Positions 59,861 through 64,000 of a stretch of 64,000 bases of DNA are shown here, piece after piece (the first letter of the stretch is position 1; each line of letters starts with the position of its first letter). The notes below the pieces were generated by a model. That model was not told the DNA's origin, made no database searches, and saw only the letters and a program-made list of their open reading frames with translations. The translations under genes and the position numbers were made by a program. Source of the stretch: Clostridia bacterium (lineage in GTDB: Bacteria; Bacillota; Clostridia; Christensenellales; DTU072); NCBI GenBank assembly GCA_045601385.1, contig JAZRZM010000005.1, forward strand, positions 823 through 64,822. The letters are read 5' to 3'.

Positions 59861-60529
59861 ATGGTACACTTCGGAAACGATTGGGACGACGTCCTGCAAG
59901 GAGAATTCGACAAAGACTACTATCGCAATTTGCACGACTTTTTGCGCGAAGAATACGCCACGCAGACAGTCTATCCGCCCATGCACGATATCTTCAACAG
60001 TCTGAAAACCACCCCCTATAAAGACGTGCGCGTCTGCGTCATCGGACAGGATCCTTACTTCAATCCCGGTCAGGCGCACGGCATGTGCTTTTCGGTACAA
60101 GAAGGCGTCCCCTGCCCGCCGTCGCTGAAAAATATTTATAAAGAGATTTTTGACGATTTGGGTATCCGAGAACCGAATTGCGGATACCTGATGAAATGGG
60201 CAAAGCAAGGCGTCCTGCTCCTCAACACTGTGCTTACTGTGCGGAAAGGCGCGCCGTTTTCCCACCGCGACAAAGGGTGGGAAACATTCACCGACGACGT
60301 CTTGAAAAAACTCAACGAGAAAAAAGAACCGATCGTTTTTTTACTGTGGGGACAACCCGCGAAGAAAAAAGCGGCGATTATCGATAATCCGATCCACCTC
60401 AAACTCGAAGCGGCGCACCCGTCTCCTATGTCGGCGACAAACGGTTTTTTCGGTTGCAGACATTTTTCAAAAACAAACCGTTTTTTAGTCGAACACGGAC
60501 TCGAACCGATCGACTGGGATCTGAATTGA
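59861..60529 (+). CDS. ung: uracil-DNA glycosylase
   Basis: ATG at 59861. VIGQDPYFNPGQAHGMCFSV and AAHPSPMSA motifs. 222 aa. Confidence 0.93.
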   Translation: MVHFGNDWDDVLQGEFDKDYYRNLHDFLREEYATQTVYPPMHDIFNSLKTTPYKDVRVCVIGQDPYFNPGQAHGMCFSVQEGVPCPPSLKNIYKEIFDDLGIREPNCGYLMKWAKQGVLLLNTVLTVRKGAPFSHRDKGWETFTDDVLKKLNEKKEPIVFLLWGQPAKKKAAIIDNPIHLKLEAAHPSPMSATNGFFGCRHFSKTNRFLVEHGLEPIDWDLN

Positions 60530-60534
60530 TTTTT

Positions 60535-60744
60535 TTATAATCCGAAATTCGTCCCCTGACCGCAACCGCACGAAGACGTTTCTCCGCCGCAGGAGCAAGA
60601 CGAACCGTTATCGGACAAACACAGCAAACAAAGACACATGGCAAGGGTATTTTTATTATCCGCCATGCTTCCTCCGCATCCGCACGAGCCGTTTCTGTTA
60701 TTATTCAGAATCATTAACAAGAGCATCGGCAAAGAATCAAACAT
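60535..60744 (-). CDS. small Cys/Gly-rich protein (69 aa, 9 Cys)
   Basis: GGAGGT 9 nt upstream of the ATG at 60744. Three S-C-(G/S)-C-G motifs plus MCLCLLCL. Divergent from an ArsR-family gene. Confidence 0.5.
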   Translation of the reverse strand: MFDSLPMLLLMILNNNRNGSCGCGGSMADNKNTLAMCLCLLCLSDNGSSCSCGGETSSCGCGQGTNFGL

Positions 60745-60813: not shown

Positions 60814-61215
60814 ATGATGGAAGAAAAAAAACGGAGAACATCAAAAATGAGTTTAGACGAAATTATTGCACGCTACATGCCGACGGACGAATCCATTCGG
60901 GACATCTGCGAGTTCTTTTCGGTATTCGCGCAGGACACGCGCATTCGGCTTGTCTCACTGCTATCCATCTCGCCCCTTTCGGTAGGCGACATCGCGCGAC
61001 TTCTCAACATCAACCAAACGACGGTTTCGCATCAACTGCGTATTCTCAAAGACCGCCGCGTCGTAGCCTGCACCCGTCGCGGAAAAGAAATCGTCTACAC
61101 CCTCGCTTCCGACGGCGTAAACGACATTTTATTGCAAGCCGTCAAGGTCACGCGCCTGCGCGAAGACACCTTCGCCGAGCGCCTCAATAAACAACCGACG
61201 GAATTCAGAGCGTAA
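60814..61215 (+). CDS. ArsR/SmtB family transcriptional regulator
   Basis: FSVFAQDTRIRLVSLL...SVGDIARLLNINQTTVSHQLRILKD is a winged HTH of the ArsR type. The classical alpha3 CxC and alpha5 His ligands are not evident. Confidence 0.85.
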   Translation: MMEEKKRRTSKMSLDEIIARYMPTDESIRDICEFFSVFAQDTRIRLVSLLSISPLSVGDIARLLNINQTTVSHQLRILKDRRVVACTRRGKEIVYTLASDGVNDILLQAVKVTRLREDTFAERLNKQPTEFRA

Positions 61216-61239: not shown

Positions 61240-61788
61240 TTATTTTTTTATTTTGGAAATCCGCACGCACGCGTATTCGTAGCCTTTGATTAAAAGAAAG
61301 TCATATAAAAGGAACAAAACACTAAAAACGATATTAAAAACGACATAAAACGCGCTTTCGGAAAGATTTTGCACCAAAGTGATTTTGGAAAAATCGACGC
61401 TGATCAAACCGAGCGCACGATACGCCACCCAAAAAACAAGACAGGAATAAGCGATTTTTATAAGACAAGAAAGAATAATTTTATACGGTTTATCACCGCA
61501 TTTTTGTTCGGCAAAAACGGTCAGCACGACGTAAAAGCCGCTGCACATAACGAACGAAACGATCTTGACGTTGACGATAAAAAAGCCGACGACCGCCGCG
61601 ACGATGACGGCAAGGACGGCTTCGCGATAGTATTTTTGCGTCAAAGGCAGGACGATACCGATAGCGGAAAGAGCGACGCACGAGACGGAGACGTATCGCA
61701 CGAAATACCCGATCAAAATAAAGACAAGGCTGACCGCCGCGCCGATTCCGCCGAAAGCGAGCCGCCTTGCCAAATCTTTTTTCTTCAT
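61240..61788 (-). CDS. polytopic membrane protein (5-6 TM), unknown function
   Basis: 182 aa, strongly hydrophobic. Starts 1 nt after the stop of the J-like gene. Confidence 0.6.
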   Translation of the reverse strand: MKKKDLARRLAFGGIGAAVSLVFILIGYFVRYVSVSCVALSAIGIVLPLTQKYYREAVLAVIVAAVVGFFIVNVKIVSFVMCSGFYVVLTVFAEQKCGDKPYKIILSCLIKIAYSCLVFWVAYRALGLISVDFSKITLVQNLSESAFYVVFNIVFSVLFLLYDFLLIKGYEYACVRISKIKK

Positions 61789-61789
61789 A

Positions 61790-62479
61790 TCAGCAGCAAC
61801 GAATCAGGTCGCCGCCCATACATTCGCAACAACAGTCGGCGCACAGGAGCGAATTACAGCAGTCGCACACCGTACAACCGCGCCGCGCGTTGCGGAAATC
61901 GGCTTCCGGTCCCGAATAGACGCTCTCGCCGTTCTTTTCCGTTTCACTGTAAAAAGAATTGCCTTTTTCGGTCGTATGCGCGCGCATTTCCGTTTCCAAA
62001 GCGGTTTTTGCGTCGGCATATTTGGTATTCGACGGCTCCATATTGCAAGCGAATTCCAACTGTTTCAAAGCGTCCGCGTGCCAATTTTTCCGATAAAAAA
62101 TCGCCGATTGCAGATAGTGCCACTTTGCCGAGCGCGACGTACAGTCGTCCAGGATCTTTTGCGCGGCGTCCATTTGTCCGCTTTTAATAAAGGCTTCGGC
62201 TTTATCAAGATCCATCGAATACCGATTGTCGTCGGTCTCACTGTAAAAAGAACCGCTTTGCGAAGAAAAACTTTCGTACCCTCTCTCACGCAGAATATCG
62301 CACGCGTCGTTATATGCGTCTTCTATTTCTTCCAAGCGCGCGCACGCTTCCGCGCCCTCTTCGCCCGGATTAAAACGCTTTTCCTCATATAACGCGCGTT
62401 TTTGGGTGTACGCGGCATATAATTCGTCTCTCGACGCGCTTTCGCTTACGCCTAAAATTTCAAATGGGTTTCTTTGCAT
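61790..62479 (-). CDS. J-like domain protein lacking HPD, with TPR-like middle and Cys-rich C-terminus
   Basis: NPFEILGVSESASRDELYAAYTQKRALYEEKRFNPGEEG aligns with the J domain, but YHPD is replaced by YEEK. The tail CTVCDCCNSLLCADCCCECMGGDLIRCC has 11 Cys in 28 aa. Confidence 0.7.
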   Translation of the reverse strand: MQRNPFEILGVSESASRDELYAAYTQKRALYEEKRFNPGEEGAEACARLEEIEDAYNDACDILRERGYESFSSQSGSFYSETDDNRYSMDLDKAEAFIKSGQMDAAQKILDDCTSRSAKWHYLQSAIFYRKNWHADALKQLEFACNMEPSNTKYADAKTALETEMRAHTTEKGNSFYSETEKNGESVYSGPEADFRNARRGCTVCDCCNSLLCADCCCECMGGDLIRCC

Positions 62480-63309
62480 TTTTCTCCTTTGGCAGCCAAA
62501 ACCTGCTCGGTGCGGCTCCTAAAACCGCGATATATGATGTTGGATAACGCGCCTTCGCCGACGGTCGCGTCGATGTCTTTATACCCCTCGATAATCCGAT
62601 CGATACAGTCGTACAAAAGGGGGCGCGCTTGTTTTTCCACGTCGTCGAAACAAAAGTCTTCTCCGCAAAAAGAAAGAAACGGATTATAACAACCTTTGGA
62701 AAAATCCCTCTTTGCGTCGTCGGTCGCGTCGATAAGATAAACCCATTTCCCGACGTAGAACAATAGTTTTTTCAACGGCGCGTCGGCTTTTTTTGTCAGA
62801 CTTTCGCCGCACGCCATCATGATTTGTCCGAAAAGTTCTCCTATGCAGGCGGCGTTTTTTTTCGCCTTTTCGCTCTCCCGTATACGATTATACCCTTCCT
62901 GCACCTTTTTTGTCAAATCGGGCATACGTTTCGCCGCTTTCTTAAAGGCAGGTTTCAGCACGGCTTTCCATACGCGGTGCCTGTTTTCGTCCGTCACGTC
63001 GTCACTCGCCTTAAAATAGCCCAGTATTATATTGATATCGGCTACGCGCCCGAGAATGTCGCTGTCCTTTATCGACGGGACTTTGCTTATCGGATGCGTT
63101 ATGCAATGTTCTTCGCAAAAAATCGGTTCTGCGTCCTCATAATTATAACCGAGCAGAGCCAACAAAACAATGTCGTAATTGAGGGTGAACCGCATCGCCG
63201 TCCCGTACCGTCTGCCGATCGCTTTACACAAGCCGCAATAATAGGAACGGTACGTTTGGTAATCCTTAATCAGGATATTGGGTTTATCAATAACGACATA
63301 ACCGAACAT
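62452..63309 (-). CDS. DUF5685-like Cys/His-rich protein
   Basis: Starts MFGYVVIDKPNILIKDYQTYRSYYCGLCKAIGRRYG..., which I recall as the N-terminal signature of DUF5685. ATG at 63309. 28-nt overlap with the J-like gene. Confidence 0.6.
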   Translation of the reverse strand: MFGYVVIDKPNILIKDYQTYRSYYCGLCKAIGRRYGTAMRFTLNYDIVLLALLGYNYEDAEPIFCEEHCITHPISKVPSIKDSDILGRVADINIILGYFKASDDVTDENRHRVWKAVLKPAFKKAAKRMPDLTKKVQEGYNRIRESEKAKKNAACIGELFGQIMMACGESLTKKADAPLKKLLFYVGKWVYLIDATDDAKRDFSKGCYNPFLSFCGEDFCFDDVEKQARPLLYDCIDRIIEGYKDIDATVGEGALSNIIYRGFRSRTEQVLAAKGEKCKETHLKF

Positions 63310-63316
63310 ATTTTGT

Positions 63317-64000
63317 TTACACCAAACCGACTTTGCGATAGACTTTGGAAAGCGTCCTACGCGCGATGGCGCTCGCCTTTTCGGCTCCTTTTTTTGCCGT
63401 CTCCAACACAAAGTCCTTGTTCTTCATATAGTCGAGATACCGTTCGCGAATGGGACGGAGTTTTTCGACGACGGCTTCGCCGACAGCCGTTTTCAGTTCG
63501 GCATAGCCTTTCCCCTCGAAGTCGCGTTCGAGCGTCTCGATAGGCGTATCGGTGACCGAAGAAAAAATCGTCAAAAGGTTACTCACCCCCGGTTTATTTT
63601 CTTCGTCATACCGCACGCGTCCGTCGCAGTCGGTGACCGCGCGCTTAAACTTGCGCATGATGTCGTCGGGCGTATCAATCAGGCTGACCGTCGCGTTGAC
63701 GTCGGGATCGGACTTGCTCATCTTTTTGGTCGGATCCTGCAAAGAAAAGACCTTCGATCCCTGCTTGCCGATATAGGCTTCGGGCACGGTGAAAGTCGGG
63801 CTGTACAAGTTATTGAACCGTATCGCAAGATCGCGCGACAGTTCGAGATGTTGTTTCTGGTCGATACCCACCGGCACATAGTCGGTTTGATACAAAAGAA
63901 TATCGCTCGCCATCAGCACGGGATAATCGAGCAGTCCCATATTGATATTATCCGCGTGTTTTGCCGATTTATCCTTAAATTGAGTCATCCGTTGCGCTTC
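63317..64000 (-). CDS. trpS: tryptophan--tRNA ligase, C-terminal about 228 codons (gene continues off the right edge)
   Basis: GIDQKQHLELSRD and KMSKS. The frame stays open to position 64000 (…EAQRMTQFKDK). Confidence 0.9.
   Translation of the reverse strand, partial: EAQRMTQFKDKSAKHADNINMGLLDYPVLMASDILLYQTDYVPVGIDQKQHLELSRDLAIRFNNLYSPTFTVPEAYIGKQGSKVFSLQDPTKKMSKSDPDVNATVSLIDTPDDIMRKFKRAVTDCDGRVRYDEENKPGVSNLLTIFSSVTDTPIETLERDFEGKGYAELKTAVGEAVVEKLRPIRERYLDYMKNKDFVLETAKKGAEKASAIARRTLSKVYRKVGLV

Follow-up and report, generated by a model that had tools for sequence, protein, structure and literature searches.

Introduction

Cysteine-string proteins (CSPs) are lipidated on their string, which anchors the co-chaperone to the membrane. 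The animal CSP alpha (DNAJC5) combines a J-domain with a dense cysteine string (reviewed in PMC9712954), and in the farnesylated class A Hsp40s yeast Ydj1 and plant J2/J3 the C-terminal cysteine is prenylated and directs the protein to membranes (PMC5769771). Class C J-proteins can be encoded with, and devoted to, one partner, as is the case for HscB with IscU/HscA and for DjlB/DjlC with HscC. A J-fold that lacks the His-Pro-Asp (HPD) motif yet is conserved occurs in the mitochondrial protein Pam16/Tim16, a binding and regulatory module rather than an Hsp70 activator. In Bacillus, the enzyme ComQ, which has the isoprenyl diphosphate synthase (IPPS) fold and Asp-rich motifs and belongs to the polyprenyl synthase sequence family, is encoded beside ComX, the polypeptide that it prenylates. 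Here we compare with these systems a three-gene locus in a stretch of 64,000 nucleotides (nt) from a Clostridia bacterium (assembly GCA_045601385.1, contig JAZRZM010000005.1, positions 823 to 64,822), hereafter called the window. The locus consists of a DUF5685 gene (g1), a J-like gene (g2) and a membrane-protein gene (g3), and it is the local copy of a module found widely in Clostridia. All coordinates are window positions.

A literature search for DUF5685 yielded a single paper, in which the family is a list entry only. Searches for bacterial cysteine-string or prenylated J-proteins returned eukaryotic work only, and no paper describing a module of DUF5685 and a J-type protein was found in the literature searched.

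Organization of the locus

The genes of the locus were delimited using the list of open reading frames (ORFs) and the sequence, and are as follows.

62452-63309, minus strand: g1, DUF5685 protein of 285 aa, start MFGYV (ORF list and sequence)
61790-62479, minus strand: g2, J-domain-derived, TPR-like, cysteine-string protein of 229 aa (ORF list and sequence)
61240-61788, minus strand: g3, membrane protein of 182 aa (ORF list and sequence)
63317-64000, minus strand: trpS, tryptophanyl-tRNA synthetase, 3' two thirds, continuing beyond the window (ORF)

The stop codon of trpS, whose full ORF of 331 aa is contained in the extended locus L001, is separated from the ATG of g1 by 7 nt. The genes g1 and g2 overlap by 28 nt, and the g2 stop and the g3 ATG are 1 nt apart. 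An earlier reading of the window from its sequence only (the sequence-only reading) had described three minus-strand genes directly after trpS with this overlap and this gap, the first starting with MFGYV, and the ORF list and sequence bear it out in each of these respects. No terminator-like site was found on the minus strand from trpS to g3. A gene for a threonine synthase C-terminal domain (L001:3312-3803, past the window end) lies 4 nt upstream of trpS and, because trpS follows it so closely, the trio appears to be the tail of a longer operon. An Rfam scan around and upstream of trpS in L001 gave no match, and no T-box. A perfect sigma-70 consensus (TTGACA, 18 nt, TATAAT; 12/12) is present inside g1 at 62887-62916 on the minus strand, roughly 410 nt before g2 begins; this site may be an internal promoter for g2 and g3, or a chance occurrence.

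DUF5685 is paired with a J-type protein across Clostridia

Conservation of the trio was evaluated in two sets of loci. A profile search with g2 in 300 Clostridia genomes identified 29 further loci, all 29 with a DUF5685 gene directly upstream on the same strand and 27 with a g3 homologue directly downstream. A scan with the g1 alignment, using one genome per species, gave 80 loci, the nearest of which belong to uncultured Christensenella, Christensenellaceae and Stercoripulliclostridium metagenome-assembled genomes (MAGs) from animal and human guts. In this set, a g2 homologue follows g1 in each of the 76 loci that extend past g1. When both sets are pooled, g1 is followed by g2 in 105/105 species-level loci with enough sequence, and g3 is present as well in 95/105. 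These synteny counts rule out a chance juxtaposition of the three genes. Accordingly, the view of the sequence-only reading that the genes form one unit is upheld by the same gene order in all 105 loci and by the conservation of the trio in related genomes, while the pairing of DUF5685 with a J-protein, which that reading had mentioned for other Clostridia, proves to be real and near-universal.

Of the 300 Clostridia genomes sampled, 166 encode DUF5685, nearly always once per genome; these genomes span 109 of 178 genera. The module is thus common in Clostridia, yet it is without description in the literature searched. Among 14 control genomes, Thermotoga maritima also gave a match. A word search retrieved 1385 g2 homologues, and at E ≤ 1e-10 the g2 family comprises 1109 clusters (50% identity).

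The more divergent members of the family show which parts of the module are constant. Of twenty such loci surveyed, 14 have DUF5685 followed by an HPD-containing J-protein whose linker is rich in Gly and Tyr and whose last 30 residues include 5-9 Cys; these J-proteins gave no tetratricopeptide repeat (TPR) match. In several of these 14 (L139-L144) g3 is replaced by a membrane protein of 125-146 aa with a CPxCK...CPxC zinc ribbon, encoded about 0.6-0.7 kb downstream. In one family (L130-L133, in genomes G190, G136, G269 and G243) the gene after DUF5685 encodes a MATE-type transporter and there is no J-protein gene next to it; G136, G190 and G269 encode elsewhere in the genome a protein of 137-159 aa with TPR and Cys tail, and without a J-domain. 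In this survey, therefore, what stays constant beside DUF5685 is a J-type protein whose tail is cysteine-rich and partly hydrophobic. These two proteins are the core of the module, and the small membrane protein is its usual companion.

Predicted fold and conserved motifs of g1

The g1 protein matches Pfam DUF5685 (PF18937) at 229.9 bits, with a gathering cut-off of 26.7, over model positions 1-271 of 272. In a Pfam scan, all 28 homologues aligned with g1 match DUF5685 as well; invariance in g1 is stated for this alignment throughout. Its main features are listed below.

63226-63237, minus strand: C25-G-L-C28, part of an invariant Y-C-G-x-C-K motif (g1 alignment)
63103-63105, minus strand: C69, invariant (g1 alignment)
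62989-63012, minus strand: Asp-rich motif 1, K100-A-S-D103-D104-V-T-D107, at the C-terminal end of helix 84-108
62704-62730, minus strand: Asp-rich motif 2, D194-A-T-D197-D198-A-K-R-D202, at the end of helix 177-197

The sequence-only reading had drawn attention to several Cys/His clusters in g1, most of which do not hold up in the alignment: the first Cys of FCEEHC and the cluster GCYNPFLSFCGEDFC are not conserved. C25, C28 and C69 are the only invariant cysteines; most homologues have a fourth near the C-terminus, although not all do. The N-terminus MFG..DKPN..KD, R40 and NYD are likewise invariant. Invariant positions of the Asp-rich motifs are K100, D103 and D107 in motif 1 and D194, A195, D198 and D202 in motif 2, where D197 reaches at least 90% conservation.

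The AlphaFold2 model based on the 28 homologues is of high confidence (predicted local distance difference test, pLDDT, 92.6; predicted template modelling score, pTM, 0.91) and almost wholly helical. When this model was compared with the Protein Data Bank (PDB) using Foldseek, nearly all of the top 50 matches were trans-isoprenyl diphosphate synthases (polyprenyl, farnesyl, geranylgeranyl, hexaprenyl and octaprenyl diphosphate synthases) or class I terpene synthases. In the model, the two Asp-rich motifs are three helices apart, as they are in helices D and H of the trans-IPPS enzymes. As candidate functions the sequence-only reading had named metal or Fe-S cluster binding, redox chemistry and palmitoylation-like lipidation; the predicted fold of g1 points to prenyl rather than acyl lipidation, and a metal role is kept as a rival. 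The host genome has one canonical polyprenyl synthase that could supply the substrate.

A J-like domain without HPD in g2

The features of the g2 protein, from the N- to the C-terminus, are as follows.

62282-62479, minus strand: J-like domain, residues 1-66 (alignments to E. coli DnaJ and family profile)
62378-62386, minus strand: HPD position, occupied by E32-E33-K34 (alignment to E. coli DnaJ)
62015-62218, minus strand: TPR-like middle, about residues 88-155 (sub-threshold Pfam and profile matches)
61793-61876, minus strand: cysteine string CTVCDCCNSLLCADCCCECMGGDLIRCC, 11 Cys in 28 residues (sequence)

Alignment of the g2 N-terminus to the J-domain of E. coli DnaJ places E-E-K opposite H-P-D, the tripeptide of the helix II-III loop. 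At the profile level (20 g2 homologues), the same J-domain is matched at E=1.5e-6, 'y-e-e-k-r-f' falling opposite 'Y-H-P-D-R'. The absence of HPD, claimed in the sequence-only reading, is thereby confirmed on correct alignment, pairwise and by profile, as well as by column counts in 149 homologues. The residues E32-E33-K34 are followed by R35-F36-x-x-G39-E-x-G42, which is conserved in the clade. With 17.9 bits (18.8 bits in the genome search) g2 remains below the cut-off of 27.8 of Pfam PF00226; three HPD-bearing orthologues pass Pfam DnaJ at 65-68 bits. Judged by the profile match together with the orthologues that carry HPD in the same position, g2 descends from a J-domain.

Loss of HPD is not a family-wide trait, as most Clostridia orthologues keep the motif; in the set from the g2 profile search, 25 of the 29 loci have an HPD-containing partner. 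A maximum-likelihood tree built from g1 of 105 loci gathers the HPD-less partners into one split of 61 rows with a Shimodaira-Hasegawa-like approximate likelihood ratio test (SH-aLRT) value of 99, made up of Christensenellales-like MAGs. There is one exception outside this split, which brings the changes in HPD state on the tree to two in all. This exception (L092:4851-5504) is the sole HPD-less partner within the HPD clade; its tail, VACDHCHCPCSDGCDCNCCDGCGCDC, is rich in His, Cys and Asp, and no g3 follows. The genomic context differs between the clades as well: a trpS homologue is located directly upstream of g1 in 52 of the 57 assessable HPD-less loci and in 0/18 HPD loci. Only within the HPD-less clade, then, is the module placed behind trpS.

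Across 62 HPD-less species, mean pairwise identity is 40% in the J region versus 13-16% in the linkers. The consensus of the J region is aYxxlrxkYxxxrFxeGExGnxAa in this clade and kAYrELvKKYHPD in the HPD clade; a conserved YxxxRFxxGExG motif stands in for the HPD loop. The conservation of the J region in the HPD-less clade shows that the J-like domain remains under selection, now with a different loop. Outside the locus, the host genome encodes a single DnaK and a single canonical DnaJ, with no further Hsp70 found. Since HPD is missing, g2 is predicted to have lost stimulation of the Hsp70 ATPase.

The TPR-like middle and cysteine tail of g2

A TPR-like middle had been proposed for g2 in the sequence-only reading, and this part of the description stands in a weaker form. 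For g2 itself, matches to SRP_TPR_like and TPR_19 (Pfam) are sub-threshold. The g2 profile matches Ski3/TTC37 and consensus TPR proteins at E values from 3e-4 to 9e-4, and among the orthologues with HPD, one scores high enough to attain the cut-off of TPR_8. Longer proteins with other N-terminal parts (P0312, of 466 aa, P0346, P0383 and P0388) also contain the TPR-like part, accompanied or not by a Cys tail.

The last 28 residues of g2 contain 11 cysteines, as had been counted before. In the alignment of g2 homologues the tail core CADCCCECMGGDLIxCC is nearly invariant and is the best-conserved part of the protein. A C-terminal CC is present in 143 of 149 g2 homologues, which have 8-12 Cys in their last 30 residues. 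Two tail types occur in the HPD-less clade, namely CADCCCECMGGDLIxCC and forms like GGDSCAQWCCDMIICNTLLNCCCNCR, with about ten switches between them on the tree. The tails of other lineages are differently spaced Cys/hydrophobic sequences, rich in L, I, M, F and W. The tail was considered as a metallothionein of the SmtA type and this was rejected: neither Pfam nor NCBIfam yields a match, L, I, M, F and W are present, and Cys spacing varies among orthologues.

The membrane protein g3

For g3, a membrane protein with 5-6 transmembrane helices had been predicted, in agreement with the six hydrophobic segments of the protein and with its AlphaFold2 model (pLDDT 82.8), which contains five long helices, one of them long enough for two membrane crossings. 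Searches of g3 itself, of 19 close homologues and of four distant orthologues against Pfam and NCBIfam gave no match. A template modelling (TM) score above 0.5 was reached by one structure only, RibU, the riboflavin S component of an energy-coupling factor (ECF) transporter (5kbw_B; TM 0.58/0.61, probability 0.92, E=0.86). Because of this E value, the likeness of g3 to RibU is one of shape only and is not taken as a finding.

A proposed prenylation model and its alternatives

From the observed synteny, predicted fold resemblance, motifs and loss of HPD in a single clade, we infer a ligand, a substrate, a lipidation and a localization, which we put forward tentatively as the best reading of the data, possible rather than probable. 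According to this model, g1 would be a Mg2+- and diphosphate-dependent prenyl-transfer enzyme that alkylates the cysteines of the g2 tail, and lipidated g2 would be found at the membrane together with g3. Resembling class I isoprenoid enzymes in its predicted helical fold, g1 would bind an allylic prenyl diphosphate via Mg2+ held by the two invariant Asp-rich motifs and would move the prenyl group onto the thiols of the tail, which almost always ends in -CC. Lipidated g2 would then be positioned at the membrane beside the six-helix g3 and, in most Clostridia, its intact J-domain would bring DnaK to the membrane site. In the Christensenellales-like clade HPD would have been replaced once by the YxxxRFxxGExG loop, with retention of the part formed by g1, tail and g3; the HPD-less J-like domain most likely no longer stimulates Hsp70 and would act as a binding module. 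A broader reading is that Clostridia own a protein S-prenylation system, in which DUF5685 multiply prenylates the cysteine string of a J-adaptor to give a lipid-anchored, chaperone-recruiting membrane platform, one large clade of which does without Hsp70 activation; this generalization we consider doubtful.

Several observations weigh against the prenylation model. The Foldseek scores of g1 are moderate (TM 0.45-0.58, best E 2.8e-3, none at E ≤ 1e-3). Sequence methods make no connection between g1 and prenyl enzymes, and the link is for this reason drawn at the level of fold and motif only: the g1 profile finds no homology to prenyl enzymes in the PDB, g1 has no Pfam match to PF00348 or related models, and the scan of the 28 homologues gave one weak SQS_PSY match (1/28). 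An hhalign comparison of g1 with 14 polyprenyl synthases from the host genome and its relatives reached 6.6% probability, and it is at only this probability that motif 1 is placed on the FQxxDDxxD of polyprenyl synthases. Equivalence of the two motifs to the first and second Asp-rich motifs of these enzymes (FARM and SARM) is derived from helix order only. Moreover, the three invariant cysteines of g1 suggest a metal centre, and the strict conservation of non-Cys residues in the main tail type (A-D, E, M-G-G-D-L-I), reminiscent of a folded metal-binding motif, argues for a fixed metal site. Finally, we know of no bacterial enzyme with a class I fold that S-prenylates a protein.

The main rival is a metal or Fe-S module, in which the g2 tail and the three invariant g1 cysteines would coordinate an iron-sulfur cluster or zinc, with the J-type protein as a dedicated carrier or scaffold, following the logic of HscB-IscU, and g1 as a metalloprotein whose fold is only incidentally terpene-synthase-like. 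Such a module would make sense of the invariance of C25, C28 and C69, with a fourth Cys usual near the C-terminus, and of the acidic and Gly residues kept between the tail cysteines in CADCCCECMGGDLIxCC, and it would be in keeping with the His/Cys/Asp-rich tail of L092 (VACDHCHCPCSDGCDCNCCDGCGCDC), the strictly anaerobic nature of the module carriers and an ArsR/SmtB metalloregulator-type gene that adjoins the module in 21 related loci. It leaves the invariant Asp-rich motifs of g1 unexplained, however, and neither g1 nor g2 matches a metallothionein, Fe-S or zinc-finger family. From one orthologue to the next the tail cysteines differ widely in number and spacing, and aromatic and aliphatic residues abound in many tails; as judged from these sequences, a lipidated string suits the tail better than a fixed metal site. 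On balance, we regard a metal or Fe-S module as less likely than prenylation, but as a serious rival.

Another explanation, which we consider improbable, retains an isoprenoid enzyme and changes its substrate. In this case g1 would act on a small molecule, in the making or the modification of a membrane lipid or a cofactor, g3 would bind or move the lipid, and g2 would serve as a regulator or membrane-associated scaffold with a tail that is not a substrate. The fold and Asp-motif evidence for g1 applies here equally. A small-molecule-binding ECF S component is the best fold match of g3, which would fit a lipid-handling role, but the match is not significant (E=0.86). Likewise, the MATE-type transporter gene that takes the place of a J-protein gene after DUF5685 in L130-L133 would fit a small-molecule product, but genomes of this MATE-type family still encode a TPR and Cys-tail protein elsewhere. 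This scheme does not explain why, near-universally and often with gene overlap, g1 is paired with a Cys-tailed protein across very different third genes.

A sporulation- or spore-envelope-specific assembly factor of Clostridia is disfavoured and very improbable, as the module's occurrence in class Clostridia and the presence of Spo0A and SpoIVA in the host genome are offset by a 2x2 count across the 300 Clostridia genomes that shows no association with SpoIVA (DUF5685 in 131/228 SpoIVA-positive vs 35/72 SpoIVA-negative genomes, 57% vs 49%, with 97 SpoIVA-positive genomes lacking DUF5685).

Neighbouring genes beyond the trio

Downstream of g3, the window contains two small genes that recur near the module.

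60814-61215, plus strand: ArsR/SmtB-family regulator, convergent with g3 (HTH_5 and NF033788 matches)
60535-60744, minus strand: small ORF of 69 aa, divergent from the ArsR gene, in which both hydrophobic segments are followed by Cys clusters (ORF)

In 21 related loci, an ArsR homologue is found no more than about 1 kb past g3. A small Cys peptide is encoded beside the ArsR gene after g3 in L047-L049, L051, L052, L054, L055, L057, L060 and L062, and in at least ten related species the pair of ArsR gene and small peptide has the same layout or is flipped as a unit; L061 has a similar small peptide and no ArsR match. The ArsR gene and the 69-aa ORF are possible associated neighbours of the module, and the 69-aa peptide, which is alike to the g2 tail in composition, could be part of the same system. 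A uracil-DNA glycosylase family gene (59861-60529, plus strand) is located between a giant lipoprotein gene and the small Cys-rich ORF.

Implications

If the g2 tail is prenylated, the module would be a bacterial counterpart to the eukaryotic lipid-anchored J-proteins, made by a different enzyme fold, and would represent a new protein lipidation route in Gram-positive anaerobes, many gut species included. If, on the other hand, the tail and g1 bind metal, a new cysteine-rich metal-handling adaptor would be defined. The HPD-less clade constitutes a natural experiment that can indicate which parts of the system stay selected once Hsp70 activation is lost.

Comparison with known systems

Because g2 scores below the DnaJ cut-off and lacks HPD, and because sequence comparison does not connect g1 to the polyprenyl synthases, the two proteins are filed only as a DUF5685 protein and a J-domain-derived protein. 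DNAJC5, with its J-domain and dense string, differs from g2 in being eukaryotic, in having an internal string that is palmitoylated by DHHC enzymes, an intact HPD and no TPR, and in lacking a neighbouring isoprenoid-fold enzyme, whereas in g2 the string is C-terminal and HPD is replaced. The profile match of g2 to DNAJC5 is weak and covers the J-domain only. By its sequence features g2 is not of the DNAJC5 type, as the string is present but a functional HPD J-domain is absent. Ydj1 and J2/J3 carry a single CaaX cysteine and a canonical HPD, unlike g2, and are modified by a heterodimeric farnesyltransferase with an alpha-alpha-barrel rather than by an enzyme of the class I fold.

The pair formed by ComQ and ComX is the closest parallel in arrangement to the proposed roles of g1 and g2, with an enzyme encoded beside the polypeptide that it modifies. 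In contrast to ComQ, g1 has no sequence match to the polyprenyl synthase family, and ComQ acts on a tryptophan of a small secreted pheromone while the proposed target of g1 would be the cysteines of the 229-aa cytoplasmic g2. The trans-IPPS enzymes (farnesyl diphosphate synthase, FPPS; geranylgeranyl diphosphate synthase, GGPPS; octaprenyl diphosphate synthase), which are the best structural matches of g1, likewise have two Asp-rich motifs at helix ends, three helices apart. Compared with them, g1 is shorter, has no detectable sequence homology and possesses additional features, namely the invariant N-terminus MFGYVxxDKPN, the YCGxCK motif and a beta-hairpin carrying C69.

Pam16/Tim16 resembles g2 in its conserved J-fold without HPD, but it is a eukaryotic component of the import motor and has neither a cysteine string nor TPR. 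The devotion of a J-type protein to one partner encoded with it is shared with HscB and with DjlB/DjlC. These proteins, however, keep HPD and a dedicated Hsp70, whereas the genome described here encodes only one DnaK, and the partner of its J-type protein is an enzyme-like DUF.

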